From Bilabrum cf. latius (Eukaryota), in the NCBI GenBank assembly GCA_965178125.1, contig OZ237736.1, positions 1,722,788-1,742,787 of the forward strand: 20,000 nt of DNA, read 5' to 3'. The notes below the pieces were generated by a model that was not told the DNA's origin, did no database searches, and saw only the letters and a program-made list of their open reading frames with translations. Shown one piece after another: positions 1 to 20,000 of this stretch. Numbering within the stretch: the first letter of the stretch is position 1; every line of letters starts with the position of its first letter. The position numbers and the translations under genes are program-made.

Positions 1-1
1 C

Positions 2-3000
2 GATCGACTAAGCGACGTGCAGGGCACACCGGCATTCCAACCGCCGGAGATTTTCACGATGGAGCGGGGGTCTGGCAACACGTACAGTGGGTTTGCATTT
101 GACATGTGGTCGGCAGGGGCAACCCTATATTCGCTTGTGTTCGGGCGGCCCCCATTTATGGCAAAAGGCCAGGTGGCGCTGGTGGAGGCTGTCACCCATG
201 ACGAGCTGAAGATAGAGGAGAGCAAGGTGAACCCATTCTTGCGCAACTTGCTCATGGGTCTGCTTGAGAAGGACCCGTCCAAGCGCATGACGCTGCCCGG
301 CGCGATGACGCATGACTGGGTCACGCAGGAGGGGGCTGACCCTCTGATCACAGCTAGACACAAACGGTTGCGTCTCCACGACATTGCAGAAAGGTCGCGC
401 ATGGCATAGCTCGCATCGATTACCGTGCAGAAGGTGGCAGGTCCCGAGCAGCAGGTAGGCACAGCTGCCGCAGGGTCATCGAGGGCACAGTCCAAAGGTG
501 CTGGAGCGTCCGGTCGCCCAACACCTCCACCTCGAGGGCTGCGCCCGCCGCCACGTCCAACAGTGCGGATTGGCCGGTAGTCCTCCAATGAATCCACTGA
601 TACATTCGCCAGTGCTGTGCGTGGATCACCCACCACACCGACGTCGGGAACAGGCATAGGGTAGGGCCGCCCTGCAGTTGCCAGTCTCAACCTCGGGTTA
701 CGAACAGGAGATACCGCTGCACCGCCTACAACAAAGAGTGGGCAGCGCGCGAGGAGACGGAGCGTTGCTGTGGCCGGATACCGATACAACCCTATCACAC
801 CGCTGTCTGCTCGTGATGGATTCGGTGGTGGCTAGTCACTCCTGAAGGGAGCTTCTACGTCTCGCGGTGGCGGCAAGGGCTTCAATAAATGGGGATCAAA
901 GGAGGCTGCCGGTGGCAGAGGAGACGCCCCAGCATCGGGTGCAGGTGCAAGCGAGCGGCCGGGTGGGGGCCCCAGTGGTGCAGAGCTACTCGCGAAGAGT
1001 TTAACTCGAACCTAGTCTGCTCCCTACTTGCTTCCGAGCGTTCGAGAGGACCCGCTGCTCAAGTCGTAGACTGCAGTTAGTCGGCACGAGTATGAAATGA
1101 GGCAGAATCGTTTCGGCCGCCTTTGGCGCACCAAAAACCACAGCCATGCAAAGCATGGCATGCCCCACGCTGGGCATGCCAAGGGCAAACGGCGCAGCAT
1201 CTTCATCAAAAACGACGTGGAAGTCGGAATGGAGGGCGTTACGCAATCCCCCCGCATTGACCACGAGCTTCAAGTGAGGCCGGGTAGGGGCCATGGCGGC
1301 GGTGTAGATAGTGTCGGATACTCTAGCCCAGATGCTGCGGCTGGAGGTGGTGCTGGGCCTGCCACTTCAGTTTCGGGCAGCAGTGCTGGACCACGGGGCG
1401 GACGAGTGGTCGGCCTTCAGGAGAAGAAAAGGGCCGAAACTCGCCGGAAGAAGCAGCAGGAGACGCAGGCTAAGATTCGTGAGCTGTGCCGAGCAACGCA
1501 GAAAAAGAGGATGCGCCTTTTCAAGGGCTACGAGGGTCAGTTGGACAGCAAGACGCTCCAGGTGCTCATGGACCAGGGCAGGCTCCCAATCGCAGCAGAA
1601 CGTGCAGCGGCTCAAGTTGTCGACATGGAAATTTTCAGCGGTGGGGGAGGGAAAGACGATGCCAAGTCAACGGACAGTGACGCGAGTGCCAATGGCAACG
1701 CAAGCCCGCCAGGTCATGTTACAATGGAAGGACTTGGGCCAGCTTCACCTGGAGCTGGCAGTCGAAATCTGGGCGGCAGCAGCGGCCTCGGATTAAATTC
1801 TTCCTTGAAAGGCAAGCTTGGAGGCTCCGGTGAGCTCAGCAAGTCCAAGCAGGTTCTATCCCGGGCTGAGAGTGAGGCGAGACTTCACAAAGGTGGCCTC
1901 AGTCGAACGAAGGACTTTGTGATGGTCCGCCACGAAGCTGCTGCCGGAGGTGCGGATGGCGGTCGAGCAATGAAAGGAGTCGTATTCACTTCGAACACTG
2001 ATTCGCTCAGTCTTGTGGGTGGCTTGAGAAATGCGCAGCTGAACAAGAGGGGTCAGGGCTAGGACCAGCTGGGAGGCATCGGGGCAACCCATGTAGAAGC
2101 AAGCGATGAAGACTCGTCTGACGACGACGATGCCAGTCTGGACAGCGCTAGCGAATGGGCTGGCGATGGTGGCGGGCGCAAGAGCGGCATTAAGAAGAGC
2201 AGAAAGAATAGGGTCGAGTCGGGCAGCGACAGCGATTCGGACAGCGACAGCGATGGCGAGGAGATCGTCGCATTGGATGGTAATGACGATATCAACGACG
2301 TGTTTGACGAGCTAGAGGCCTACAAGCACAAGCATGACCCCTCGCTGGACGACCTATCTAAAGAGGAAGAAGCTAGGCTTGCCGTCGCTTTGGCCAGTCT
2401 GTCTGTGGACGAGATGGCAGCCACAAAAGCAGGTGAAGTACCTCGGGCAGCAGATGCTGCCAGGCGTGGGGAGCAGCTGGAAGGCGACACCGTCGAGCAA
2501 GAGAACGAAGATGACAGCGATGCTGACGACGTTCACGAAGCAGGATCTGCTGACGGCCTCCGCACTCCGCCCTTGGTGGAGAAGCAAAGTGATGACAGTA
2601 CGCCTCTCTCTCCCGCTGCGAGCAGCGACGCAGCAGTTGGATAGGAAGCAGTGAGCAGGATGTAGGCCAGCAAGGTGGAGCAGAAGCATGCCAAGCAAAG
2701 GGCGAGAGAGGCTATTCCCATGCGGACAGTGCGAAACAACTGGGGTGGTGTGGACCCTATACGAGGCCTTGTGTGGGCTGCTGCTGAGCGCTAGGGCAAA
2801 CCTGACTACATGGAAGATCGTTTCCTTGCTGTACCCACCGTGTACGATCGGCGCGATGTGGGAGGGGCACAGGAGCCAGACTGGGTCAGGGCTTGTGGTG
2901 GGGCTGCCACATTTGCTGTGTTTGACGGCCACAAAGGGGACACTGCGTCTGAGTACCTGCGACGTGGCTGGTAGCGGAAGCTGCGAGATGTGCTTGCGAG

Positions 3001-4231
3001 ACCTGAGTCTCGGCCACCATAGTTACCTCCGATGTCAGCTCGTGATAGCAGCCGTGGCGTAGATGGCGTCAGTGCAGCAACAGGTGGTGCTTTCTCCCCT
3101 CGACCGGGCGACGAGGAGGCCGCTCCCGAGCCTGACTTGCCGATTGGTGTGGCCAGCAGTGGAGACAGCATGGCAAGGGCTCTTCAAGCCGCGTGTACTG
3201 AATTGGATGGCGAGTTGCTGGCTCACTGCAAGAAATACGATGTTGGAGACGGCTCCACTGGAACTGCTGTGGTTTTTATGAGAGATCCTGCAGGTGTAGC
3301 GGGTGACGAGGCCGGTTTGCTGTCTACAGCGAAGGCTCCACTTCGAGTTTGGTGTGCAAACGTTGGAGACACTCGGGCAGTACTTAGTCGAGGTGGCATT
3401 GCTGTTGAACTCTCCAAGGACCACGGCACGGATGATCCCGAAGAGGTCGCTAGGGTACACAGCGTTGGTGGGGCGATCAAGCAGCGCAGGCTGCAAGGCA
3501 TTCTGGCTGTGACTCGAGCTTTCGGTGACATGGAGCTCAAGGTTGACTACGAGGGTCGATATGTTGAGGACCTTACGGGGCCACCACTTATTGCAATGCC
3601 GGATGTCGTGCGTCGTTCCATTGATGCGGAGCGCCCAGAGGATGAGGCCGAAGTGGTAGACGATGATGATGACCCTGATGAGTTGGATCGTGTTGGTAGG
3701 GACGCCAGGAACAGCTCCGCGTCTGCTCGGGACCAAGAGCTAGGCGTCGATCTCACGGCTGGCCGAGTAAGTAGGGGGCGTGATAGCTCTCTTAGTGGCG
3801 AGAAACTGGGTCCAACAGAGGACCGGGACGAGAGCAATTTCAACTTGCTGTCTTCAAAGGCGGGTGCATCGAAATTGACCACCGAGGACAGTCCGAGCAA
3901 GGGTGCAGGAGCAGCCATGGCATCTAGGTCTAAGGAATCGGACGGAGCAGATCGAGGCGTGCTTGACGGATGGCGCACAGCTACAGGGTCTGATGAGTTC
4001 GTCATCATAGCATGTGACGGTCTGTGGGACGTCATGAGCAGCCAGTAGGCCGTGAACTTCGTACGTCGACAGCTTGCTGAGCACGGTGACCTTGTGCGAG
4101 CTGCCAATGAGCTCGTGCAGAAATCACTTGAGCTATTCACCATCGACAACGTCACAGCAATCATCGTTGGTTTCATGAGAGAAGGTGCTGGCGAGCCTGC
4201 AGTTGCTGGCGACAGCCTGATGACCGTGTAA
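2..4231 (+). CDS. 5'-partial LKB1/CAMKK-like Ser/Thr protein kinase fused to a C-terminal PP2C (PPM) phosphatase; 1409 codons in the window, TAG read as sense
   Basis: Track ORFs 17, 1097, 2273 and 3032 share one frame. Manual translation of the gaps finds only TAG interruptions (13: 407, 578, 662, 833, 1013, 1067, 2060, 2642, 2663, 2792, 2972, 3020, 4046) and no TAA/TGA until TAA 4229-4231. Kinase C-lobe motifs: QGTPAFQPPE, DMWSAGATLY, GRPPF, KDPSKR, HDWVT. PP2C motifs: [TAG]GKPDYMEDRF, FAVFDGHKG, DGSTG, ANVGDTRAVL, LSKDH, LAVTRAFGD, DEFVIIACDGLWDVMS, DNVTAIIV. Confidence 0.93.
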
Positions 4232-4314
4232 TTGGTGCATAAGTACATCTGCTAGATTTTGTAATTTGGCTTTAGCTTAACATTCAATTAATTGTAGCGT
4301 GCTCGGCAATCTCA

Positions 4315-4346
4315 CCTAACCCCCCCTAACCTAACCCTAACCCTAA
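4315..4346 (-). repeat. Short degenerate telomeric tract (CCCTAA-type on +), inverted relative to the downstream arrays
   Basis: cctaac cccccctaac ctaaccctaa ccctaa read directly. Confidence 0.85.
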
Positions 4347-4357
4347 ATTCTCCAATC

Positions 4358-4727
4358 GCCCACCTCCATCCGCCGCCCTCTGCAGGCACCACCCACCAGC
4401 CACATCCCAAGCGCCCACCTCCATCCGCCGCCCTCTGCAGGCACCACCCACCAACCACATCCCAAGCGCCCACCTCCATCCACCGCCCTCTGCAGGCACC
4501 ACCCACCAGCCACATCCCAAGCGCCCACCTCCATCCGCCGCCCTCTGCAGGCACCACCCACCAACCACATCCCAAGCGCCCACCTCCATCCACCGCCCTC
4601 TGCAGGCACCACCCACCAGCCACATCCCAAGCGCCCACCTCCATCCGCCGCCCTCTGCAGGCACCACCCACCAGCCACATCCCAAGCGCTCGCCTCTATC
4701 CGCCGCCCTCTGCAGGCACCACCCACC
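4358..4727. repeat. Subtelomeric C-rich satellite, 55-bp unit, ~6.7 copies
   Basis: Unit gcccacctccatccgccgccctctgcaggcaccacccaccagccacatcccaagc starts at 4358, 4413 and onward with few substitutions; it abuts the telomeric array. Confidence 0.95.
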
Positions 4728-4980
4728 TTAGGGTAGATTAGGGTTAGGGTTAGGGTTAGGGTTAGGGTTAGGGTTAGGGTTAGGGTTAGGGTTAGGGTTA
4801 GGGTTAGGGTTAGGGTTAGGGTTAGGGTTAGGGTTAGGGTTAGGGTTAGGGTTAGGGTTAGGGTTAGGGTTAGGGTTAGGGTTAGGGTTAGGGTTAGGGT
4901 TAGGGTTAGGGTTAGGGTTAGGGTTAGGGTTAGGGTTAGGGTTAGGGTTAGGGTTAGGGTTAGGGTTAGGGTTAGGGTTA
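4728..4980 (+). repeat. Telomeric array 1, (TTAGGG)n, ~42 units
   Basis: Perfect hexamers except an irregular start (TTAGGG TAGA TTAGGG); ends in ...GGGTTA. Confidence 0.98.
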
Positions 4981-5013
4981 CAGTACCATCCTAGGCCAGG
5001 CCCGGGCGCCGCG

Positions 5014-5051
5014 AAAGTATCATGTTCCGCAAAAAGTATCATGTTCCGCAA
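5014..5051. repeat. 19-bp tandem direct repeat near the invariant end of the element
   Basis: aaagtatcatgttccgcaa x2, 33 bp from the telomere junction; present in all three copies. Confidence 0.9.
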
Positions 5052-6545
5052 AGACGGTGTTGCCGCGCAGTGTCCAAGTGGTCGCAAGATCGCACTGAGG
5101 CAGATCTGGGCCAGTTGCAGATATGCAAGCAGTCGACAAGAGGTGCAAGTGATTAGCAATGCATATTTGGTGTATGATTATGCTTGTCTGCTTGGTTTAC
5201 AATGAATCTCGGCCTCGGTCTCCTCGGTGGTGCTGCCCGTGGGTGACGAGCACCCAGGGGGCTGCACGGGATGGACGCCCACCCGGCGAGTCTGGACCAA
5301 ACCGCGTCGTGCAAATTGGGTTTGCCAAGGAGGTGTGCCCTGCTGTGTTTCGCCCGCGAGAATAGGGGGTTGTCTCCCCGTCGGGCAGGTGCTCCATCCA
5401 GCTCGCCCGTCCGTGACTGAGACAGCACGGGCCGCGACAAGTGCGCGAGCCCGGGGATCAAGTCAGCGGCCGATGGCAGCGAGCCGGCATGAAGCGCGTG
5501 CACGAGGAGCTTGCGCTTCCCATGCACTGCCTGCCCCACCTCATTGCGGATCTGGGACATCAGGTTCATCGTGTTGCCACACACACCTCCACACTCGACG
5601 ATCGGATCTACAGAGACACCTGTCCCGGGATGCTGCTCCTCGTCATTGGCCTGCTCCTTCTCGCCCCGGGGGCACGCGCTGCCTCGAAGCACGCACCCGC
5701 GCTCCCGCCCGACTCAAGGACTGAGTGCTGGGAGGGTGCGCGGGCAGCCGCGTGAGAGGATGACGGGCGTGCCGCCGAAGGCCGAGTCCAGGAGCTGGGG
5801 ACGGGACGCATCGTTGGGACTGCCCTGAGGAGACCAAAGAATCAACCGCCATCCGTACGGATCCCTATACGGTTGGCCGGTCTGACTCTCTGCTCGCCCA
5901 CCGCACAGATCTGCTCAGTTCCATGCAATGTTTGCCAGAAGCGGCGAGAGGGTCTCATCAGCACAGGTGGGTCCTAAAGGCTGCCTGCAATGCATAGAAA
6001 AAGAATATATCGATTGAAACTAATTAATAGCCCCTCGATGCATGGCAACATACCCGAGTGCTGCCATGAAAACCGGACAACGCACAAGCACGTTAGCAGA
6101 CCAGCGATGATCCCATACAGATGCCAGAACCTAACAGAAACACCAACAATCAATTTGAATGAATACAATAGAATCAAAATACCTGGCGGTTGTTGTACTC
6201 GGGCTATGCGGTACCTAGCTGTTCTGTCTGCAAACGCCATGGCGCGCCCCAATGAGGCGAGACCAAAAGCAGACCCACAGCAGCATGTCACCTTGAACAT
6301 ACAACGACATATGGCAGTAAGTGGTAATTAACATGAATCCCAACAGGCCTCAGTACAGTTGAGCCGGTATGTGGCGCTGAGAGGTGTGGTTGCGCCAGAA
6401 TCCGCAAACGGTCGTGAACAGCGGAACCAGCATGCGCGGCGCCGAGGACGTCCAGCAGGGCAAGCCTGTAGCAGGGTGTGCACCGGTTCACGGTACCGAT
6501 GCTTGGATGTTTGTGGGCTAGGAATCTGTTTTGTAATACACATGA

Positions 6546-6564
6546 TAGGGTTAGCCCTAACCCT
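6546..6564. repeat. Internal inverted pair of telomeric motifs (TAGGGTTAG-CCCTAACCCT)
   Basis: Read directly; repeated in copy 2 at 16995-17013. Confidence 0.8.
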
Positions 6565-6826
6565 TCAGAATCGGATGCATGGTTCATTTACTTCCATGAG
6601 AAGGGCTGACGTCCTGCATGCACTACATTAGCCCAAATACAACACACGCACATGTCGTCTTGAAACAGTGCACCTCTTTATATTACAGTGGATATAACTC
6701 ATGGCGAGAGAGGCTTGTCTGTCTGCAGTGCTGCAATGCAGCTCTTCACTGCTGCACATGCAGCTCGAGGTTCTGCAAGTTATCTGTTCTGCATAGAAAA
6801 TCACAGAACATGACACCTCACTGGCC

Positions 6827-9800
6827 TCATGTCCATTTCTCGTCAAACCCCCAGCCTTCTTGCTCAATTGCTGGGATGTGTACCCACCGTGGAGCGGTGC
6901 CAAGAAGAAGGATCTCGATTTCGCCACGTGCCCGTGAAATATCTCGCTGGCCCATACCACGCAATCCAGCGCCGGGCACTGATGGCGCCATGTTCTGGTC
7001 ACCACGAATTCCTCTAGGTCGTGACAGTGCTGAAGTCGGCGGCTGCGTGATGGCGCTGGAGGCTGCTCCCAGCGGCGGCTGCAACTCGGCAAGGCCGTCA
7101 CTACCAGCCTTGTCGGTAGGCATCTGCAGCAATCGACCGATTGGATCATCATCGCTGCCAGCCCCACTGGATGCTGATTCCGAGGCAGGCCTCAATGGTT
7201 CCGATGCCCTGCTGCCGATCGCAGTTCGGTTGAATGCGTTGGCCTCCGTTCGTTCTGCGGGACTCGAGCTCGCATGCTCGCCGGATTGCCGCATGTGCCT
7301 TGATCGCTTCTATTGCCCTTCTTCCTCATCGCTCTCATGGCCGGGCCAAATATGTCCCAACGAATCTAGGCTATGCTCAAGAGCAGAAGTAGTGGTGGAT
7401 GCCTGTGACAGGATGCTGTCGCCATCGTCAAGAGGACGAGCACGTGTGTACATCCGAAGAACCTAGCTGCAGTGTTGCGATTGAGGTATGTGATACGCAC
7501 GCCAAAGCTCGTGCCTCTGGTCGGCACTCACGCCTGCTTCTCCTGCTTCTGCACGTGCTCGGGCCACCATGGATCGGACATCTCCCACAGCTTTCAAGCT
7601 TTGAGCTAGTGACCTGCGTACCAGCCCCTTGCCTGCTGCCTTGTAGTACGGGGCTTCTGATAGTGCAGGCACTACTGATGGACTACAGGGCAGGTTAATG
7701 CAGAGACCAGCGCCGTAGTAGCCTACATCGATGACACGACGCAGTGACCCATCCTACCTGTTCAGCGCCCCTCTGAAGACTTGAGGACAATCAAAGCCTG
7801 GGTTCATCCACTTGAAATGATCTAGCACGACAGACTCCACGTGCTGGGCAATGGTAACGGCAGGCTGGGCGGTTCTTGGTGGTGGCGAGACGTCGAGCAC
7901 TGTCTAAAGTCCAGATCGTGCAATCGACGGCTGGCCTCCCCTTGGTCGCTTCGTTCCAGGCAGAGGGGGCCGCTGCAACCGATCGGGCAGCAATACTGCA
8001 GACCCAATCACACACGCAGGTAAAAGCCACACTGATACCATACGACGAAACTGCTCGTCTGCGAGGGATGGCTGTCCGTTCTGCCTGGTGCCTACGACAG
8101 CACGAAGAATTGAAGCGACGTACGAGGTCCGGACAGATGACTCGGCAGCAAGCTTGCGTTGCATGGTCCAGGATAACGATGTTATCAACGCATAGCCTAG
8201 CTTGGAGGCCCTAGCAGATGTCGTGGTCGCCAAGTCACCCCTGAGATTCCCAGCGTTCTTAGAGCCGCGCCACATTGCGCCTGCATCTGGCCTGGGACTG
8301 AAGGCAATCTTGGATATGCACATCTGCAAGCCAACTAGTATTGCACTCCTTGAGCACCTGAGCCGAGATAGGAGCAGCCCGTACAGTGCTACAGCTAGGC
8401 TGCCCCTTGCTAGCATTCCTTTCCGTGTGCCACTGCGAAGGTGGAGCTTTGCCAGGTGCATTTGCGCAAGGTAAAGCTTCCGTAGCTGCTGCTCCATGAC
8501 TACAGCGTGGGACATGTCTGTAGACTTGGCAAAGTGCAACAATAGCCTGGACCGCTCAGGCAGTCGAGACAAAATGTCAGCCTGCACGTCAGCCCGTACC
8601 ATAGCACGAAAGCCGGTGATTCCGTTGTTCACACCGCTGATGCCCAACTGGAAGTGCTCGTCACCTTGCGTTGATACGAGTCCAGAAAGACCATACCTCT
8701 CGGAGATCCGAGAGATCTGCCATGTCATGCCCAAGCCTTCTGCCAACGCACACAGGCTCCAAGACGTTACCATGACCTCACAGACGGCAAGCACAGTCCA
8801 CGAGTTCAAGAACGTACCGTTGCACCCCCCAGCCCTGACTGACTACACCGCATTTCCGATTTGATCAATGATGGCGGATGCAACCGCCATTACATTAGAC
8901 TGCTCAGGCATACTGCTAGCAGATTGCAAACAGTCACGGACGCTGGACCACTCCAGTGTCGAAGGCCCTAAGTTTCGAAGAACTGGCCTAGTAGCGGGAA
9001 GCCACGTTACGGCAATTTGCTCTGCAACAACCTGAGACCATGCATCTGTCCGTAGAGCCACGCAGCCTTCCATACAGCATCTGCTCATCGATGCAGCTAG
9101 CGCCCACATCGCCGATCGCTGATACGTGGGAATCCTGTCTGCACCACAGACAGCTGCTACGAGCAGTCTTTCGATTCTGCAAAGTGCCCGACGGAGTGTA
9201 TACCTGAGCATTTCCAAGTGATTCATGATGGATGTCTTCTTCACGACCTCCACGAAGCATTGCGAGAATGGAGCCACTGACAAATGCTCGATAGTGTCGG
9301 CGCGATGTTCACTCCGTAACTGTCCGTACTGCAGTTCAGCTGGTAGCACTACGGAGGCCAGCATCAGACTCATGGTTGACGCGGGTACATCGAACTCGCC
9401 CCTGGTCGATCCAAGGATTCCTGCAGTTAGCCTTGCATAGCTTTGAGTGAATGCCGTTTGCAGCCCAAGGTATATCCGCCGGCGGGTTGGCAGTGCATCC
9501 AGAGCTGCCTAGGCTCGAATCATGCTTGCAGTTCTCGAACTCAAAGTCGATGGAGCATGTGCATCCGATTCAGCGAAGTGGCGAACCTTAGAGAGAACTC
9601 GTCGGCGAAACTGGTCATATGCAGAGTCGTGCGCCCCTGGACTAGGCTGAAATGCTCGGAATGCTCCAGGCTGGTACAAATGCAGCTGAGATGACAGCAT
9701 GCAGCCAAGTGACATAAATGAAGGCATGCCGTAGTCGTTGCCAGTGTCATTCTCGGCTAAAACACGTCGGTGCACGGAAAGCACGTCACCCCAGGATAGC

Positions 9801-12800
9801 GTAGCTGGAAGCATTCCTTGGAAGGTTCCGGCGTACTCTCCAACGGACGCCAGCGCCGCATATGGACGAATTCGCTCTTGCATCACGGCATACCGTGCGT
9901 GTTCGAGCCGTGTTCCGTGTATGACTCCTCGCAGCAACTGATCCCGACAGCTATGCATGTACTGAACTGTTGCTGGGTTTGGTACAGCAACTGACACTGA
10001 GCGTTCACCACACACCTCAAAGCCTACGCCAAAACTGCAGTACATGGCCATATCCGCATCCTGTTGCGGCCACAGCTGTCCGTACGGATGAATTATGGCT
10101 GCGAGATCTCTCATACCTCGGCGTTGATGACGTCCAGTCCAAGCAGGTGCTCGCGCCGCGCCGCGGTACAGCTGTTCCCGAGCACTGCGTGTCAGTGTTT
10201 TCCTGCTCACCTTCCTGTTTGTAGCGCCTGACGCCGATCGCTTGCCATCTCCTGTTGGACCAAACCATTCACCTCTGCGGCCTCTGGCAAACTCCTCATC
10301 GCTCTCATCCATTGCGATCTCCCGAGCACGTTCTTCTTCTGCCTGCTGGGCAGCCAAGTCTTCATGAGCTTTGCGAAGCTGTCCCTGTGCTGCCTGTTGC
10401 AAGAGAGACATAGGATTGCATGCTTTGCAGCCCACTCGCTAGGCGTAGAACACGGAGCACCTGGCTATCTGTCTCATCAGCAGTATCATGAGGAAGCAGT
10501 TGTAGTGTGATACTAAGTGCAGATGATCAAGTAAAGAGTCGTGACTCAAAGACCACTCGTAGGAGCTGCTGTGCTATGCTTCATCATTCTCCACGCCACG
10601 TTGCTTAGCGAAGTCGTCGTCCTCATCCACGTCCACGTCGGTGTCGTCTGAATCGCTCTGCGCAGCAGCACCACCGCTTATTCCCACGCCTTCATTCTGC
10701 TGAGCCTCGTCAGAATCAGAGTCAGAGTCACTCAACTAGTCAACGGCTGGGTAGCCAAGCCACCGTACCCAATGAAATGCGCACGAAAGCAACCGGGATG
10801 GGCTTCTGTGCAGGGTGTGAGAGCCAGGCCAGAATCTACTTGTCTGTGGACCAGGTCCACTCCCAGCGTGTGCGAGCGACGAATGGTATCCACCGGCTTG
10901 GCCTCCACCACGTTGGACACGTACCACTAGCTCTGGACCTAGCCAGTCGAGCCTGCTGGCAGCAGCCGTGAGCCCGCAGCCGAAGACGTACAGCACACAG
11001 CTTCGGATCACATCCACATGGGAGCCCTGGGTCCAGAAGCCTTCATGCATACTCATTTCTACAACACCCTCAGTATCAAGCGTTTGCTGCAAGGACTGAG
11101 ACGGAGGTTCGAACGAGTCTATCAGGTCACGGCAAAGATCAAGCAATCCACTAGGTACAAGAATAGATACCGTAGCAGCACCAACATCGAAAAGTTGAAC
11201 GTGGATGTCAGCAGCGAGTCCGCGCAGTATACGAAGCGTTGGCAATTTCGACGATTGATCGTTTGCGTTTTCTGCTTGCGTGCTGACAGCCCTACTCCAC
11301 AAGGTTCCAGAATGCGGCACCACTGAAGCCCACCCTTCCCTTGCAGCCTTGTCGACATCACGATGGAACTATCGGGTGCACTCCTACTCAATTAGTTTGC
11401 TATACTTGGTAACATCAGACAAGGCCCCGGCAGCCAACACCCGGATGCTTGAGCCACCAAGTCCATTCGGACACTTCTGCTGCAGATCGGTCACCTTGGA
11501 TCGTAAGCTATCAATCTGCTCTTGGTCGCAACGACGCTCAGCCCACAGCATCGCAGTTTGCTAGTCTTTGAAAACGTCATCCCCGTCATCAAGGAATGCT
11601 GTCCATGATATGCGCATTGATCCGCCGGCAGGCGGCCGCTGTGCGTGCGGGGCGCGAACTACCACGCCAGTTGAGGGTGATTGAGACAAGCTGGTATACG
11701 ACGGAAGCAGCGAATCTGAGTCATGTACACCTAGAACGCCATCTGTGATCCAGTCCAGCAGTGCATGGTCCGATCCATCAAGCCCCAGTGGGCTTGCCAA
11801 CGTGTGAGGCAGAAAGTGGTTCGAAGTCTCGTCTGCACTGGATCCATTGAGGTCTGCGACAGCTCCAAGAACAGTGAACCCATCTAAATCAAATGCAGAA
11901 TCGCTGTGACAAGACAGCGGTACGTTTCTGGAACCTGGTGCAGACTTGAACGCTCTATATATCGCAGGCTGGTCCGGAATTGTGCTGTCCATTGATCTTC
12001 GCGGAGAGGCCGAGCTTGACAGGCCTCGGCTTGCACTCGGAGTGACGGGCTAGCTGGATGTTCGACTCTCTTTGACAGCGACTTTCTTCCTTGCTGCGGC
12101 ACGAGATCCTTGCCTTCGGACGGCGGGCAATGGAGCGAACCCAAGGCACATGCCTGCCAAGAAGTCCAGGGGGGATGACAGGTGCTGTAGAGGTCCAGAC
12201 TCCGTTTCTGGTTGGGACATCTGATCGAGCGAGCTGCCAGTGGCCTAGCTGGCACCACGAGAACTACTGCTGTGGCTGCTTGCGGCGCCTGACGACTGTC
12301 GACGGCGGCTTGGCGAGCTGCCAGTGGCCTAGCTGGCACCACGAGAACTACTGCTGTGGCTGCTTGCGGCGCCTGACGACTGTCGACGGCGGCTTGGCGA
12401 GCTGCCAGTGGCCTAGCTGGCACCACGAGAACTACTGCTGTGGCTGCTTGCGGCGCCTGACGACTGTCGACGGCGGCTTGGCGAGCTGCCAGTGGCCTAG
12501 CTGGCACCACGAGAACTACTGCTGGGGCTGCTTGCGGCGCCTGACGACTGTCGACGGCGGCTTGGCGAGCTGCCAGTGGCCTAGCTGGCACCACGAGAAC
12601 TACTGCTGGGGCTGCTTGCGGCGCCTGACGACTGTCGACGGCGGCTTGGCGAGCTGCCAGTGGCCTAGCTGGCACCACGAGAACTACTGCTGTGGCTGCT
12701 TGCGGCGCCTGACGACTGTCGACGGCGGCTTGGCGAGCTGCCAGTGGCCTAGCTGGCACCACGAGAACTACTGCTGGGGCTGCTTGCGCCTCGTGACGAT

Positions 12801-13505
12801 CGTGCACGAGTAGCCGTTTCAGGAAGTTCGAATCCCCGCATCTCACTGTGTGCTCCTGACATCTCTGCTCGGGCAGCGAGAGCAGCTTGGGCAGGCAGAT
12901 ATCCAGTTGGCGCGTACTAGCAGCAATCAACCAGCGATACGTATGTATGCAGATCTGACTCCTTAATCAAGTCGTCAATTAATTGTTTGTGAAATATTTC
13001 TGCATCAGCGCTGGGTGTATCGTAGACCGTGAGAAGATCGGCCAGCATGCCATTTTCGATGACATCGCTTGAGACTCCAAGTTCTCGAAGGCACTCCTAA
13101 ATCTCTTCGACTTCGATGCCATCCATCTGCGATATAATAAACTGAAGTTCAATATACTGCGGTTGCTGCTGAGATGTACTCCTATTATCCCAACTGTAGC
13201 TCTGGCTTACTTCAGCTGGCGGATTCGGCTGCTGGGGATCGAAAGTGCGGATCATCTCTAATTTCTCTTCGGATATCTGCGTAACAATGCAACATAAGTA
13301 TGTATTGAGCTGTCTGCGGCGGATAGCAAATCAATACTGCCCATATACTCCACATAGAACTCACTGGAACGTGCTACCAAAACAGAGCTCGACGATTCAT
13401 TGCTCGCTGCAATCTTTTGAGTACTTTGTGCATAGATTGCATCTAGCGTGTATCATCTAAGACTTTACATGCATCGTCAATGGAACACAAGGTTTCGTCA
13501 GACAT
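6827..13505 (-). CDS. Large hypothetical protein (~2,196 aa with the proposed first exon; main exon 13276..6827), TAG read as sense
   Basis: Track ORFs ending at 11561, 10736, 9509, 8843, 7904, 7463 and 6827 share one frame. Manual translation from 13330 down to 6830 finds 22 TAG and no TAA/TGA; the frame ends at TGA 6827-6829 (...GWGFDEKWT*). Proposed exon 1 is 13505..13365 (MSDETLCSIDDACKVLDDTRqMQSMHKVLKRLQRAMNRRALFWqHVP; q = TAG). Contains Ser-rich repeats and acidic tracts; no family recognised. Confidence 0.85.
12229..12788 (-). repeat. Coding tandem repeat, 84-bp unit (28 aa, Ser/Arg/Gly-rich), ~6.7 copies
   Basis: In the long ORF frame the unit encodes S[P/H]SSSSRGASqATGSSPSRRRQSSGAAS with one in-frame TAG per unit; units differ at essentially one base (tgtgg/tgggg). 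Confidence 0.95.
13277..13364 (-). other. Putative 88-nt spliceosomal intron in the large ORF
   Basis: On - strand: donor CCA|GTGAGT and acceptor ttgcattgttacgcag|ATA. The phase-0 join removes the TGA at 13331-13333 and links to an ATG-initiated 47-codon exon. An alternative in-phase acceptor exists at 13310. Confidence 0.6.
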
Positions 13506-13716
13506 CTTTAGGCCGGTTCTGGCGCAAGCAATACTCAACGGAATATTGTGCGCGTCCCCCTCGTGGGGGGCGAGTGCCACCAGTGGGGGGTGCGTGCGGC
13601 GCCGCGCTCGACGGCGGAACACAGTATCTCAAACTGCAAGTGGTCTCGAACATCAAGATTTTTTTGTTTGCTTGCTGGCATTTTGTTTCTCTTCTGCCAG
13701 GCAGTGTGAAAAATAT
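13506..13716. promoter_or_regulatory. Putative bidirectional promoter / 5' UTR region between divergent genes
   Basis: ~210 bp between ATG 13505 (-) and ATG 13717 (+); GC-rich core at ~13548-13618 and a T-rich tract ending in CAG at 13700. Confidence 0.45.
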
Positions 13717-14664
13717 ATGTCAGACCATGCATCACCGTGGGCATTGCTTGGATTGAAGCCTGTAGACTTCGCAACGGAAAATCTCGCAATCCGCCGAGGC
13801 TTGTGTATCGCAGCTTGCGGCATATCGGTTGAAACCGTGCGGTGCATCTTTTAGGATGGTGCCTATGTATCTGCGCGATAGCGTACATCACTTCATAGTG
13901 TAATGCAGCGTATTTGTGCGACAGATGACGGCAAAGTGCTGCGTGTCGACCCAAGCTTCTTGCTTGCGGAAACAGGCCAAAGACACTTGCGTTATGCTAT
14001 CAATAGTATTAAAGAGAAGTCTGACGACGCAATCAGACGTGCCATGATGAAACTGGCTCCACAGAATGGGTTGGCGTTGCATGGAACCGGCAAGCACGCA
14101 CCAAGCTCGTCGAAGCACGTCGAAAAGATGGCATGTGCTACTGCAGCTGAAGACGACACTGCAAATACTCAAAAGGGCTCATACCTGAGATCATCTGCCT
14201 CTGGGTGTGCAAGATCGGAATCGAAAGGCAATGTTGGCTCAGGCTCCAGCCAGTAGCACCGGCGTGCACGGCGGGGCTAGTCCAAGGTCCACGGCCAGAA
14301 GATGCCGACTCAAGCCCAAGTATACTCGTGGCAAGAGGCAGTACTGCATCTGCGAACGCTCTGTGACGCATGCGAGCAGAAGGCTCACCTGACCGGAGCG
14401 GAAGCTCGCAGCTTGGTCAGATTGGCTAGCAGCAGCATCGAACCAGCTCTCGGGCGTCTAATGCAACTGGCGCGCGCAGACAAGTCTAAGAGGTCTGTGC
14501 CACTTAAGCGGACTGCTACAGCGAGAACGAGCCTATCGCGTACACCCGTCGAGTTGCCCAAAAGGAGGAGAGGGGAGAAAAGGAAATTGCTCGCTGGGGA
14601 TGCGACGCCATCGAAAAGGTGTAGGAGCATCCCTGGTGCAGTTTCGTTTCTTTCAGGGAAGTAA
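13717..14664 (+). CDS. Hypothetical basic protein (~315 aa), TAG read as sense
   Basis: Track ORFs 13480, 13903 and 14302 share one frame, separated only by TAG (13852, 13879, 14254, 14278); ends at TAA 14662-14664. Start is uncertain (ATG 13480 or 13717). The C-terminus has NLS-like basic clusters (PKRRRGEKRK, PSKRCR). Confidence 0.7.
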
Positions 14665-14759
14665 ATACTAGGTCAATACAGGTGGGCACTCGCCATCTCA
14701 CTTCTATATCCACCCAACACTCCCCCCTCCTAACTTCCAGCCAAATTGGCACCACGGCG

Positions 14760-14905
14760 CCATCCATCGCCCGCACAAACAACCTCCTTGCCCCGGCACA
14801 GCCACCATGGCCCCCATCCATCGCCCGCACACCCACCCTCCTTGCCCCGGCACAGCCACCATGGCCCCCATCCATCGCCCGCACACCCAACCTCCTTGCC
14901 CCGGC
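14760..14905. repeat. C-rich satellite, 54-bp unit, ~2.7 copies, at the distal end of element copy 1
   Basis: Unit ccatccatcgcccgcacacccaccctccttgccccggcacagccaccatggccc at 14760, 14814 and 14868; the last unit is cut by the telomeric array. Confidence 0.92.
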
Positions 14906-15429
14906 TAGGGTTAGGGTTAGGGTTAGGGTTAGGGTTAGGGTTAGGGTTAGGGTTAGGGTTAGGGTTAGGGTTAGGGTTAGGGTTAGGGTTAGGGTTAGGG
15001 TTAGGGTTAGGGTTAGGGTTAGGGTTAGGGTTAGGGTTAGGGTTAGGGTTAGGGTTAGGGTTAGGGTTAGGGTTAGGGTTAGGGTTAGGGTTAGGGTTAG
15101 GGTTAGGGTTAGGGTTAGGGTTAGGGTTAGGGTTAGGGTTAGGGTTAGGGTTAGGGTTAGGGTTAGGGTTAGGGTTAGGGTTAGGGTTAGGGTTAGGGTT
15201 AGGGTTAGGGTTAGGGTTAGGGTTAGGGTTAGGGTTAGGGTTAGGGTTAGGGTTAGGGTTAGGGTTAGGGTTAGGGTTAGGGTTAGGGTTAGGGTTAGGG
15301 TTAGGGTTAGGGTTAGGGTTAGGGTTAGGGTTAGGGTTAGGGTTAGGGTTAGGGTTAGGGTTAGGGTTAGGGTTAGGGTTAGGGTTAGGGTTAGGGTTAG
15401 GGTTAGGGTTAGGGTTAGGGTTAGGGTTA
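14906..15429 (+). repeat. Telomeric array 2, (TTAGGG)n, ~87 units
   Basis: Perfect hexamer array ending in ...GGGTTA. Confidence 0.98.
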
Positions 15430-18146
15430 CAGTACCATCCTAGGCCAGGCCCGGGCGCCGCGAAAGTATCATGTTCCGCAAAAAGTATCATGTTCCGCAA
15501 AGACGGTGTTGCCGCGCAGTGTCCAAGTGGTCGCAAGATCGCACTGAGGCAGATCTGGGCCAGTTGCAGATATGCAAGCAGTCGACAAGAGGTGCAAGTG
15601 ATTAGCAATGCATATTTGGTGTATGATTATGCTTGTCTGCTTGGTTTACAATGAATCTCGGCCTCGGTCTCCTCGGTGGTGCTGCCCGTGGGTGACGAGC
15701 ACCCAGGGGGCTGCACGGGATGGACGCCCACCCGGCGAGTCTGGACCAAACCGCGTCGTGCAAATTGGGTTTGCCAAGGAGGTGTGCCCTGCTGTGTTTC
15801 GCCCGCGAGAATAGGGGGTTGTCTCCCCGTCGGGCAGGTGCTCCATCCAGCTCGCCCGTCCGTGACTGAGACAGCACGGGCCGCGACAAGTGCGCGAGCC
15901 CGGGGATCAAGTCAGCGGCCGATGGCAGCGAGCCGGCATGAAGCGCGTGCACGAGGAGCTTGCGCTTCCCATGCACTGCCTGCCCCACCTCATTGCGGAT
16001 CTGGGACATCAGGTTCATCGTGTTGCCACACACACCTCCACACTCGACGATCGGATCTACAGAGACACCTGTCCCGGGATGCTGCTCCTCGTCATTGGCC
16101 TGCTCCTTCTCGCCCCGGGGGCACGCGCTGCCTCGAAGCACGCACCCGCGCTCCCGCCCGACTCAAGGACTGAGTGCTGGGAGGGTGCGCGGGCAGCCGC
16201 GTGAGAGGATGACGGGCGTGCCGCCGAAGGCCGAGTCCAGGAGCTGGGGACGGGACGCATCGTTGGGACTGCCCTGAGGAGACCAAAGAATCAACCGCCA
16301 TCCGTACGGATCCCTATACGGTTGGCCGGTCTGACTCTCTGCTCGCCCACCGCACAGATCTGCTCAGTTCCATGCAATGTTTGCCAGAAGCGGCGAGAGG
16401 GTCTCATCAGCACAGGTGGGTCCTAAAGGCTGCCTGCAATGCATAGAAAAAGAATATATCGATTGAAACTAATTAATAGCCCCTCGATGCATGGCAACAT
16501 ACCCGAGTGCTGCCATGAAAACCGGACAACGCACAAGCACGTTAGCAGACCAGCGATGATCCCATACAGATGCCAGAACCTAACAGAAACACCAACAATC
16601 AATTTGAATGAATACAATAGAATCAAAATACCTGGCGGTTGTTGTACTCGGGCTATGCGGTACCTAGCTGTTCTGTCTGCAAACGCCATGGCGCGCCCCA
16701 ATGAGGCGAGACCAAAAGCAGACCCACAGCAGCATGTCACCTTGAACATACAACGACATATGGCAGTAAGTGGTAATTAACATGAATCCCAACAGGCCTC
16801 AGTACAGTTGAGCCGGTATGTGGCGCTGAGAGGTGTGGTTGCGCCAGAATCCGCAAACGGTCGTGAACAGCGGAACCAGCATGCGCGGCGCCGAGGACGT
16901 CCAGCAGGGCAAGCCTGTAGCAGGGTGTGCACCGGTTCACGGTACCGATGCTTGGATGTTTGTGGGCTAGGAATCTGTTTTGTAATACACATGATAGGGT
17001 TAGCCCTAACCCTTCAGAATCGGATGCATGGTTCATTTACTTCCATGAGAAGGGCTGACGTCCTGCATGCACTACATTAGCCCAAATACAACACACGCAC
17101 ATGTCGTCTTGAAACAGTGCACCTCTTTATATTACAGTGGATATAACTCATGGCGAGAGAGGCTTGTCTGTCTGCAGTGCTGCAATGCAGCTCTTCACTG
17201 CTGCACATGCAGCTCGAGGTTCTGCAAGTTATCTGTTCTGCATAGAAAATCACAGAACATGACACCTCACTGGCCTCATGTCCATTTCTCGTCAAACCCC
17301 CAGCCTTCTTGCTCAATTGCTGGGATGTGTACCCACCGTGGAGCGGTGCCAAGAAGAAGGATCTCGATTTCGCCACGTGCCCGTGAAATATCTCGCTGGC
17401 CCATACCACGCAATCCAGCGCCGGGCACTGATGGCGCCATGTTCTGGTCACCACGAATTCCTCTAGGTCGTGACAGTGCTGAAGTCGGCGGCTGCGTGAT
17501 GGCGCTGGAGGCTGCTCCCAGCGGCGGCTGCAACTCGGCAAGGCCGTCACTACCAGCCTTGTCGGTAGGCATCTGCAGCAATCGACCGATTGGATCATCA
17601 TCGCTGCCAGCCCCACTGGATGCTGATTCCGAGGCAGGCCTCAATGGTTCCGATGCCCTGCTGCCGATCGCAGTTCGGTTGAATGCGTTGGCCTCCGTTC
17701 GTTCTGCGGGACTCGAGCTCGCATGCTCGCCGGATTGCCGCATGTGCCTTGATCGCTTCTATTGCCCTTCTTCCTCATCGCTCTCATGGCCGGGCCAAAT
17801 ATGTCCCAACGAATCTAGGCTATGCTCAAGAGCAGAAGTAGTGGTGGATGCCTGTGACAGGATGCTGTCGCCATCGTCAAGAGGACGAGCACGTGTGTAC
17901 ATCCGAAGAACCTAGCTGCAGTGTTGCGATTGAGGTATGTGATACGCACGCCAAAGCTCGTGCCTCTGGTCGGCACTCACGCCTGCTTCTCCTGCTTCTG
18001 CACGTGCTCGGGCCACCATGGATCGGACATCTCCCACAGCTTTCAAGCTTTGAGCTAGTGACCTGCGTACCAGCCCCTTGCCTGCTGCCTTGTAGTACGG
18101 GGCTTCTGATAGTGCAGGCACTACTGATGGACTACAGGGCAGGTTA
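15430..18146 (-). mobile_element. Telomere-associated element, copy 2 (truncated, ~2.7 kb)
   Basis: Matches 4981-7697 (ORF track identical at offset 10449), then switches into telomeric repeats at the shared GGTTA. Confidence 0.92.
17276..18146 (-). pseudogene. 3' fragment (~290 codons) of the large hypothetical gene, lacking its 5' part
   Basis: Corresponds to 6827-7697; cut at ...GLCI|NLPCS by telomeric repeats. Confidence 0.85.
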
Positions 18147-18488
18147 GGGTTAGGGTTAGGGTTAGGGTTAGGGTTAGGGTTAGGGTTAGGGTTAGGGTTA
18201 GGGTTAGGGTTAGGGTTAGGGTTAGGGTTAGGGTTAGGGTTAGGGTTAGGGTTAGGGTTAGGGTTAGGGTTAGGGTTAGGGTTAGGGTTAGGGTTAGGGT
18301 TAGGGTTAGGGTTAGGGTTAGGGTTAGGGTTAGGGTTAGGGTTAGGGTTAGGGTTAGGGTTAGGGTTAGGGTTAGGGTTAGGGTTAGGGTTAGGGTTAGG
18401 GTTAGGGTTAGGGTTAGGGTTAGGGTTAGGGTTAGGGTTAGGGTTAGGGTTAGGGTTAGGGTTAGGGTTAGGGTTAGGGTTAGGGTTA
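18142..18488 (+). repeat. Telomeric array 3, (TTAGGG)n, ~58 units
   Basis: Perfect hexamer array ending in ...GGGTTA. Confidence 0.98.
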
Positions 18489-20000
18489 CAGTACCATCCT
18501 AGGCCAGGCCCGGGCGCCGCGAAAGTATCATGTTCCGCAAAAAGTATCATGTTCCGCAAAGACGGTGTTGCCGCGCAGTGTCCAAGTGGTCGCAAGATCG
18601 CACTGAGGCAGATCTGGGCCAGTTGCAGATATGCAAGCAGTCGACAAGAGGTGCAAGTGATTAGCAATGCATATTTGGTGTATGATTATGCTTGTCTGCT
18701 TGGTTTACAATGAATCTCGGCCTCGATCTCGGCCTCGGTCTCCTCGGTGGTGCTGCCCGTGGGTGACGAGCACCCAGGGGGCTGCACGGGATGGACGCCC
18801 ACCCGGCGAGTCTGGACCAAACCGCGTCGTGCAAATTGGGTTTGCCAAGGAGGTGTGCCCTGCTGTGTTTCGCCCGCGAGAATAGGGGGTTGTCTCCCCG
18901 TCGGGCAGGTGCTCCATCCAGCTCGCCCGTCCGTGACTGAGACAGCACGGGCCGCGACAAGTGCGCGAGCCCGGGGATCAAGTCAGCGGCCGATGGCAGC
19001 GAGCCGGCATGAAGCGCGTGCACGAGGAGCTTGCGCTTCCCATGCACTGCCTGCCCCACCTCATTGCGGATCTGGGACATCAGGTTCATCGTGTTGCCAC
19101 ACACACCTCCACACTCGACGATCGGATCTACAGAGACACCTGTCCCGGGATGCTGCTCCTCGTCATTGGCCTGCTCCTTCTCGCCCCGGGGGCACGCGCT
19201 GCCTCGAAGCACGCACCCGCGCTCCCGCCCGACTCAAGGACTGAGTGCTGGGAGGGTGCGCGGGCAGCCGCGTGAGAGGATGACGGGCGTGCCGCCGAAG
19301 GCCGAGTCCAGGAGCTGGGGACGGGACGCATCGTTGGGACTGCCCTGAGGAGACCAAAGAATCAACCGCCATCCGTACGGATCCCTATACGGTTGGCCGG
19401 TCTGACTCTCTGCTCGCCCACCGCACAGATCTGCTCAGTTCCATGCAATGTTTGCCAGAAGCGGCGAGAGGGTCTCATCAGCACAGGTGGGTCCTAAAGG
19501 CTGCCTGCAATGCATAGAAAAAGAATATATCGATTGAAACTAATTAATAGCCCCTCGATGCATGGCAACATACCCGAGTGCTGCCATGAAAACCGGACAA
19601 CGCACAAGCACGTTAGCAGACCAGCGATGATCCCATACAGATGCCAGAACCTAACAGAAACACCAACAATCAATTTGAATGAATACAATAGAATCAAAAT
19701 ACCTGGCGGTTGTTGTACTCGGGCTATGCGGTACCTAGCTGTTCTGTCTGCAAACGCCATGGCGCGCCCCAATGAGGCGAGACCAAAAGCAGACCCACAG
19801 CAGCATGTCACCTTGAACATACAACGACATATGGCAGTAAGTGGTAATTAACATGAATCCCAACAGGCCTCAGTACAGTTGAGCCGGTATGTGGCGCTGA
19901 GAGGTGTGGTTGCGCCAGAATCCGCAAACGGTCGTGAACAGCGGAACCAGCATGCGCGGCGCCGAGGACGTCCAGCAGGGCAAGCCTGTAGCAGGGTGTG
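18489..20000 (-). mobile_element. Telomere-associated element, copy 3 (runs off the window)
   Basis: Same junction GGGTTA|CAGTACC; matches 4981 to ~6480 apart from a 12-bp duplication at 18714-18737. Confidence 0.92.

Follow-up and report, generated by a model that had tools for sequence, protein, structure and literature searches.

Chains of subtelomeric units spaced by telomere repeats are a known kind of chromosome end. In yeast, the Y' elements are multi-kilobase subtelomeric units arranged head to tail with telomere-repeat tracts between them; they carry open reading frames (ORFs), lack a reverse transcriptase (RT), are highly identical to one another and spread by recombination. Human subtelomeres contain duplicated blocks bounded by interstitial telomere tracts of the same orientation, which are ascribed to healing and recombination. 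Here we describe such a chain in a 20,000-nucleotide stretch of Bilabrum cf. latius DNA (contig OZ237736.1, positions 1,722,788 to 1,742,787 of the forward strand), hereafter the window. In the window, a chromosome end carries three near-identical copies of a two-gene unit, head to tail, with TTAGGG arrays between them. What is new in this chain is its gene content, and the chain looks more like recombination-driven end duplication than like a jumping retroelement.

Further background comes from published papers, each represented here by excerpts of its text. According to these excerpts, Y' elements are present at 17 of 32 yeast telomeres and provide a backup in the absence of telomerase (PMC11042809). 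The MoTeR elements of Magnaporthe oryzae lie in TTAGGG telomeres with their 3' end towards the centromere, and have truncated copies capped by telomere repeats as well as interstitial tracts; their arrays grow by break-induced replication and shrink by breaks in the interstitial telomere tracts (PMC7367193). Strains of M. oryzae without telomeric retrotransposons can carry many long interstitial telomeres, and in Setaria-infecting strains without MoTeRs duplicated blocks are bounded by interstitial telomere repeats (PMC7367193). The Athena, Coprina and Terminon elements combine a Penelope-type RT with short reverse-complement telomere repeats and an adjacent hammerhead ribozyme (PMC8557442).

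Anatomy of the chain and its copies elsewhere

The telomere arrays, as delimited by Tandem Repeats Finder, and the unit copies are listed below, with the order and number of units as assembled.

4728-4980, plus strand: telomere array 1, with the variant start TTAGGGTAGA and then 243 bp of perfect TTAGGG (4738-4980, 40.5 copies)
4981-14905, minus strand (the strand of ORF-A): unit copy e1, 9,925 bp, the longest copy
4981-4991, plus strand: invariant proximal terminus CAGTACCATCC as found in e1, always joined to ...GGGTTA
5014-5052, plus strand: 19-bp direct repeat AAAGTATCATGTTCCGCAA, 2.1 copies, near the terminus and in all three copies
14906-15429, plus strand: telomere array 2, 524 bp of perfect TTAGGG, 87.3 copies
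15430-18141, minus strand: unit copy e2, 2,712 bp, 100% identical and ungapped to e1 4981-7692 (blastn)
18142-18488, plus strand: telomere array 3, 347 bp of perfect TTAGGG, 57.8 copies
18489-20000, minus strand: unit copy e3, at least 1,512 bp, cut by the window edge and identical to e1 save for a 12-bp duplication

The observation of a telomere-repeat-spaced chain is confirmed. A sequence-only reading of this DNA had described three same-orientation copies, each preceded by about 250-520 bp of pure telomeric repeat, and this description holds, with perfect tracts of 243, 524 and 347 bp and 0 mismatches to (TTAGGG)n in all three. Because TTAGGG reads on the plus strand, the chromosome end lies to the right, so that the invariant end of the unit is proximal and the variable end distal, as that reading had also proposed. 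At the proximal end, the array/unit junction is GGGTTA/CAGTACC in 3 of 3 copies and its phase is constant (GGGTTA/CAGTACCATCC). The terminus has three matches in the window, all on the plus strand and each directly 3' of an array (4981, 15430 and 18489), against 0.01 expected from shuffles; 0 of 200 shuffles reached three. The 19-bp motif matches six times in the window, against 0.11 expected. The distal ends of e1 and e2 differ from each other. Copy e1 ends within a 54-bp tandem array (...CCCCGGC/TAGGGTTAGGG), and e2 ends at a GGTTA that is common to the telomere repeat, such that e1 has GGTTAATG where e2 has GGTTAGGG (a 5-base match). The content of e2 is the region downstream of ORF-A, the long minus-strand ORF of the unit, together with the final 288 codons of that ORF. 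The sole difference between e3 and e1 is the 12-bp tandem duplication, at 18714-18742.

Public sequencing contigs hold further copies. Six runs from two studies contain at least 71% of the sampled words, three further runs contain small shares, and no RNA runs were among the runs listed as holding sampled words. We compared contigs of runs X1, X5, X7 and X8 over 4981-12200; such contigs show presence and not absence, telomere-like records may be filtered out of them, and their word depth is not copy number. In X1, word depth was 354-475 over 4981-6093, 133 for the contig covering 6156-11708 and 64 for the next contig, so that the depth of the proximal ~1.1 kb is 2.7-3.6 times that of the 5.5-kb contig. 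In X5 the proximal and distal depths were 26.5 and 9.8 (2.7 times). This fall matches a chain of truncated copies plus perhaps one or two more proximal ends. In addition, X1 contains one copy truncated at 5603 (0.6 kb) and then followed by TTAGGG repeats, and a diverged subfamily with 16 differences in 168 bases in which the junction again reads GGGTTA/CAGTACCATC. In X1 the unit also meets other flanks, at positions 5067, 5108, 5260 and 6264, some of them common to X5, and X5 has a copy of 6270-12200 with 3 differences plus a diverged paralogue. The sequence-only reading would have been undercut by an element occurring only here, as a local tandem duplication, and the further copies and other flanks in these contigs speak against that state of affairs.

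The same contigs bear on whether the chain itself was assembled correctly. Copies that are 100% identical and arrays that are perfect are the situation in which assemblers mis-join, and the order of the chain rests on the assembly. Furthermore, the junction of e2 with telomere repeats at 7692 is not among the 14 loose ends listed out of 15, and one X1 contig runs through this position. It could thus be that the pieces are real and that the chain order or copy number is an artefact, in which reads from several ends were joined through telomere repeats. We consider this improbable. Both junction types turn up independently among public contigs, namely GGGTTA/CAGTACCATC and the 5603-truncated unit followed by TTAGGG, and depth falls from proximal to distal in X1 and X5 much as the chain predicts, although one run may be the source of the window. 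Moreover, contigs of this kind, from which telomere-like records may be missing, cannot show the absence of a junction.

Two low-depth runs from other studies, X7 and X8, hold identical pieces only within 4981-7147, the proximal 2.2 kb. One X7/X8 contig diverges at exactly 5603, the position at which the X1 copy is telomere-capped, and 5603 may be a module boundary. Matches of GGGTTACAGTACCATC in viral contigs (25 stretches) were set aside as chance, as TTAGGG stood in front of the match in 0 of 26 fetched loci.

Gene content of the unit and a distant relative

The unit is made up of ORF-A, ORF-B and a tandem array of ~50 bp, with no recognisable enzyme, and may be a two-gene subtelomeric cassette that encodes neither replication nor transposition enzymes, an interpretation to which we give an even chance. 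Reading TAG as a sense codon, as argued below, its features in e1 are as follows.

6827-13255, minus strand: ORF-A, 2,142 amino acids (aa) from the first Met, with 22 TAG in frame, neither TAA nor TGA before the end, and TGA as its stop
12229-12799, minus strand: 84-bp tandem array within ORF-A, 6.8 copies with 98% matches, encoding a 28-aa Ser/Arg-rich repeat
13717-14664, plus strand: ORF-B, 315 aa from Met 13717, divergent from ORF-A, with the basic C-terminal stretch KRRRGEKRK
14760-14905, no strand assigned: C-rich 54-bp tandem array (2.7 copies), distal in e1 on the ORF-B side and cut by telomere repeats
4981-6826, minus strand: region downstream of ORF-A, 1.85 kb; contig depth is highest in its first ~1.1 kb, a stretch that public contigs also join to other flanks

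The stop-to-stop frame of ORF-A (6827-13330) spans 2,167 codons, with the first Met at 13255. In a codon-usage model trained on the host gene of the left flank, ORF-A scores 0.019 per codon in frame compared with -0.16 to -0.29 in the other frames, and ORF-B scores -0.006 compared with -0.12 to -0.28. This host-like usage in both frames makes e1 look like a divergent gene pair. Two oppositely oriented ORFs are what a cellular gene pair would show, and not a single-sense retrotranscript. Contigs of run X1 break near 11708-11734, which hints at variants of the tandem-array region of ORF-A. Within the high-depth proximal module lies a possible minus-strand ORF of 186 codons (5153-5713) without TAG. 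It is mildly coding-like by codon usage (-0.057 in frame, -0.14 to -0.28 otherwise), has zero Pfam families and may be a third gene. Also downstream of ORF-A, at 6546-6564 (16995-17013 in e2), is a head-to-head telomere-like palindrome, TAGGGTTAG/CCCTAACCCT, which could be a site for a telomere-repeat-binding protein or could be chance.

None of these genes could be assigned to a family. ORF-A, ORF-B and five other ORFs gave zero Pfam families above threshold. The sequence-only reading had found no recognisable RT, endonuclease or helicase, and at the sensitivity of Pfam we reach the same result: a six-frame translation of e1, in which X replaced TAA and TGA, returned 0 families, whether RT, endonuclease, helicase or transposase, with E up to 1 for the minus strand and up to 0.1 for the plus strand. 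The sole Pfam trace was RICTOR_N (E 0.075). A word-based protein search with ORF-A residues 440-2167, at near lengths, gave zero matches. An exhaustive phmmer search with the ORF-A core gave 10 matches, all of them short unnamed metagenome fragments and none in a named family; these are 60-88% identical to the core, apart from one of 364 aa at 35%. A PDB sequence search with the protein P0022 had 0 matches at E up to 1. ESM Atlas matches of the relative P0009 stayed at or below 0.80, the chance range, with TM at or below 0.41; several of them fall in HEAT/TPR/ARM-type clusters, which is no more than a lead. We tentatively take ORF-A to be an orphan protein, probably alpha-helical. An AlphaFold2 model of the ORF-A core of the relative described next, built from a 12-row alignment, was unusable (mean pLDDT 40.6, pTM 0.28).

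A metagenome contig, L001 (8,118 bp, GC 52%), carries a homologue of ORF-A in a similar setting.

L001 55-192, no strand assigned: G-rich 49-bp tandem array
L001 241-1251, minus strand: small ORF, 336 aa with 4 TAG, in the same position and orientation as ORF-B
L001 1671-7379, plus strand: long ORF, 1,902 aa with 24 TAG, homologue of ORF-A

ORF-A aligns with the long ORF in two segments, one of 850 aa with 29% identity (E 4e-77) and one of 457 aa with 26% (E 2e-24). The small ORF compared with ORF-B gave a BLASTP E of 0.11 and a Smith-Waterman score of 59, which 8 of 300 shuffles reached, so that these two share conservation of position only. Neither counterpart has a Pfam family. As far as sequence can tell, the cassette layout of tandem array, opposite-strand ORF and ORF-A homologue is conserved in this distant relative. 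Neither a telomere repeat nor DNA similarity to e1 is present in L001, and there is no resemblance between the first 54 bases of the contig and the e1 terminus (463 of 2,000 shuffles score as well). The contig ends 740 bp past the stop of the ORF-A homologue, too short to reach an e1-like terminus.

Recombination and its rivals

The reading that we favour, while giving it only an even chance of being right, is that of a Y'-like subtelomeric cassette that spreads through recombination primed by telomere repeats and through healing by telomerase. A (TTAGGG)n tract somewhere in the genome would directly precede CAGTACCATCC, and a chromosome end or broken end with telomere repeats would invade that tract. 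The cassette would then be copied outward by break-induced replication or unequal exchange. Breaks or template switches would occur at short repeat matches, such as GGTTA in e2, and in fragile tandem arrays, and telomerase would cap or extend the broken or switched ends with TTAGGG. Repetition of this cycle of invasion, copying, breakage and healing would give head-to-tail copies with one inherited proximal junction, differing distal ends and arrays of differing length. We infer both the recombination step and the role of telomerase, as we do the functions of the two proteins.

Several features argue for this recombination reading. The junctions are identical, the copies are 100% identical, no enzyme is recognisable, and the divergent gene pair has host-like codon usage. 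In addition, the layout is conserved in L001, the copies appear to be few, and their flanks in public contigs are mosaic. The end of e2 at a 5-base match to the telomere repeat is expected for healing or template switching. Breaks in tandem arrays point the same way, as do published cases of telomere-embedded arrays growing by break-induced replication and of long interstitial telomeres that form in the absence of retrotransposons (excerpts of PMC7367193).

The sequence-only reading had left the choice between a retroelement and a Y'-like unit, and the Y'-like unit fits better. A non-autonomous telomere-targeted retroelement, like HeT-A or MoTeR2, is the contrasting possibility and, in our judgement, an unlikely one, though far from negligible. 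Under this rival, a minus-strand RNA ending in ...GGAUGGUACUG would be copied by an RT encoded elsewhere and truncated cDNAs would be extended by telomerase, a step to which we give similarly limited credence; the same holds for priming from a G-strand 3' end or from a nick at T/TA of the repeat. Since ORF-A is encoded on the minus strand, the C-strand repeats of the proximal array adjoin its 3' side. This is the right polarity for such an element, and it bears out the earlier statement that the 3' end of the sense strand is followed by C-strand telomeric repeats. All three copies keep one end in one phase, as does the diverged X1 subfamily, and the distal truncation varies, with units of 9.9 kb, 2.7 kb, 1.5 kb or more and, in X1, 0.6 kb. 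Arrays of differing length are compatible with sequential transposition according to the authors of PMC7367193, in the excerpted text. Finally, the proximal ~1.1 kb is deeper in contigs and occurs in other contexts, like a 3' module common with a partner.

Against these points, the search for retroelement hallmarks yielded nothing positive. There is no RT in any e1 frame, and no partner RT came to light, though no search of the genome was made for one. Rfam searches of the whole window at the gathering score and of 4700-15500 with E up to 1 each gave 0 matches, and so no hammerhead. The unit/array junction has no A-run (on the minus strand it reads ...GGATGGTACTG/TAACCC), and the 3' 220 nt of the minus strand folds no better than shuffles (z 0.16). 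ORF-B is antisense to the proposed transcript, and the contig depths, which do not equal copy number, suggest a handful of copies; the two divergent ORFs and this apparent low copy number also speak against the retroelement half of the earlier inference. A bolder version of this rival, which we regard as rather unlikely, is that of an RT-less retroelement specific to telomeres whose genes, for a giant alpha-helical protein and a small basic one, would be entirely new; an RT encoded elsewhere, or telomerase, would copy it onto G-strand ends. If it were true, chromosome ends would be built by alternation of telomerase and element, in the manner of HeT-A, in a telomerase-bearing organism that reads TAG as sense.

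Other observations count against recombination as the source of the chain. Because break-induced replication usually continues until the donor ends, the 2.7-kb and 0.6-kb units would each need an extra break or template switch, and incomplete reverse transcription (5' truncation) would explain these short units in one step. The orientation of ORF-A is that of a telomere-primed retroelement. The distal junction of e1 (GGC/TAGGG) has no match to the repeat. The X1 subfamily keeps the 10-base CAGTACCATC at GGGTTA while the next 14 bases differ, which hints that the terminal sequence is constrained, something that simple recombination does not require. L001 carries no telomere repeat, so that the telomere association of the unit need not extend to the wider family, and the evidence includes no donor locus, long read or recombination intermediate. 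Recombination and reverse transcription in trans predict the same anatomy, and the present data do not separate them.

A third origin would be a TA-targeting DNA transposon of the Tc1/mariner or pogo type, inserted in the TA of the telomere repeats. The inverted repeats of such transposons often begin with CAGT, and the left junction of the unit reads ...TTA/CAGT...; moreover, the array resumes with TAGGG after e1, as a duplicated TA would predict. In X7, one contig departs from the unit after 111 bp, and the sequence that follows includes an inverted copy of part of the 19-bp motif. We nevertheless hold this origin to be very improbable indeed, given that e1 and L001 have no terminal inverted repeat, neither the terminus nor the 19-bp motif occurs on the minus strand of the window, no e1 frame encodes a transposase, and the distal ends differ between copies.

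Returning to the recombination reading, comparison with described systems shows where the unit stands. It shares with yeast Y' elements head-to-tail units distal to unique DNA, telomere tracts between the units, highly identical copies and no RT. Unlike the helicase-encoding Y', it has no helicase or any Pfam domain and no sequence relationship to Y', and whereas Y' elements come in two size classes, copies here are strongly truncated and the interstitial tracts long (243-524 bp) and perfect. The cassette would therefore resemble Y' in function while being unrelated to it. Like Drosophila HeT-A, the unit has a long region downstream of its ORF, and HeT-A depends on an enzyme encoded elsewhere. 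In contrast to HeT-A, which has Gag and an oligo(A) tail, the unit has no oligo(A) junction, and Pfam found no Gag or zinc-knuckle family in ORF-A and the minus-strand frames; Drosophila also lacks telomerase repeats, whereas the chain alternates with TTAGGG arrays. Same-orientation interstitial telomere tracts stand at block boundaries in human subtelomeres and in the Setaria-infecting strains as they do here, but in the present chain a single block occurs three times consecutively, with a boundary exact to the nucleotide and arrays that are not degraded. The absence of an RT, the head-to-tail terminal arrays and the variable 5' truncation are further likenesses to HeT-A (excerpts of PMC5537684).

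As in MoTeR, the 3' end of the unit adjoins telomere repeats, and such repeats cap its truncated copies. In contrast, MoTeR1 encodes an RT with a restriction-enzyme-like endonuclease, neither of which Pfam finds in e1. MoTeR also has 5' variant repeats (TTCGGG, then TTTGGG repeated), where the distal end of e1 is a 54-bp array broken off by canonical TTAGGG, and its interstitial tracts of at most 18 repeats (excerpts of PMC7367193) compare with 40-87 repeats here. Endonuclease-deficient Penelope-like elements resemble the unit in their location at chromosome ends and in having the 3' side on the G-rich strand (excerpts of PMC8557442), but a Penelope-type RT is missing by Pfam from the six e1 frames and ORF-A, and a hammerhead is missing by Rfam. 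Short reverse-complement telomere repeats at the 3' end of these elements pair with the G-overhang; in the unit, the terminus adjoins arrays of 243-524 bp in one phase, where element-borne and telomerase-made repeats are indistinguishable. In sum, the unit works most like a yeast Y' or MoTeR array, yet lacks what defines every family considered. A literature search, which was not aimed at a named organism, found no description of such a cassette.

Native chromosome end, genetic code and meaning of the chain

To the left of the chain lie a host gene and the native chromosome end.

2-4231, plus strand: host gene, C-terminal part of a kinase plus a PP2C phosphatase, with 13 in-frame TAG and a TAA stop
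4316-4347, no strand assigned: short C-strand telomere-like run CCTAACCCCCCCTAACCTAACCCTAACCCTAA, in the orientation opposite to the arrays and just before the 55-bp array
4352-4727, no strand assigned: C-rich 55-bp tandem array, 6.8 copies (Tandem Repeats Finder and repeat-family search)

The host ORF matches PP2C (E 3.1e-39) and Pkinase (E 9.6e-14) in Pfam, with ~900 low-complexity residues linking the protein kinase domain to the phosphatase domain. The left flank (1-4737) has zero blastn matches to e1. The CCTAACCCCCCCTAACCTAACCCTAACCCTAA run starts 85 bp past the host gene stop and may be a trace of an old end-to-end event. The 55-bp array is the final non-telomeric sequence of the native chromosome end and is capped by TTAGGG. 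The native end and e1 thus both terminate inside C-rich arrays with a unit of ~55 bp; the mutual likeness of the 54-, 55- and 49-bp units of e1, the flank and L001 is no better than that of shuffles.

The long frames support a nuclear code in which TAG is sense and TAA and TGA are stops. In contrast, the trypanosomatids described in PMC12153298 have all three stop codons reassigned and a lower GC content. The host frame (2-4231) and the ORF-A frame together hold 35 in-frame TAG in ~3,576 codons and zero in-frame TAA or TGA, and they stop at TAA (host) and TGA (ORF-A); with TGA or TAA read as sense instead, both frames stay closed. The two L001 ORFs add 28 in-frame TAG (4 and 24). One host TAG sits in the PP2C motif DGLWDVMSSQ[TAG]AVNFV, at a position that is presumably E or Q in other PP2Cs. 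The sequence-only reading had assigned TAG to Q. These long TAG-containing ORFs uphold TAG as sense, but for its identity Q is tied with D as the commonest residue opposite TAG in the ORF-A alignment (4 of 16 each, with Q including one TAG-TAG pair). In 4 of the 15 database fragments examined, the fragment terminus falls exactly at an ORF-A TAG site, as expected if relatives likewise read TAG as sense. A tRNA scan returned 0 genes.

Yeast Y', fungal and insect telomeric chains carry a helicase, Gag or RT, whereas the unit described here has no recognisable enzyme; its two-gene layout is kept at 29% ORF-A protein identity, and its arrays are long and perfect. The window also adds a nuclear genome that reads TAG, and not TAA or TGA, as sense. 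If the recombination reading is true, this chain would be a clean natural example of repeated cycles of breaking, healing and copying at one end in a telomerase-positive microbial eukaryote. If the unit is instead copied from RNA, it would be a telomere-building element of a new class. Whichever holds, ORF-A and ORF-B are candidate novel proteins of chromosome ends.

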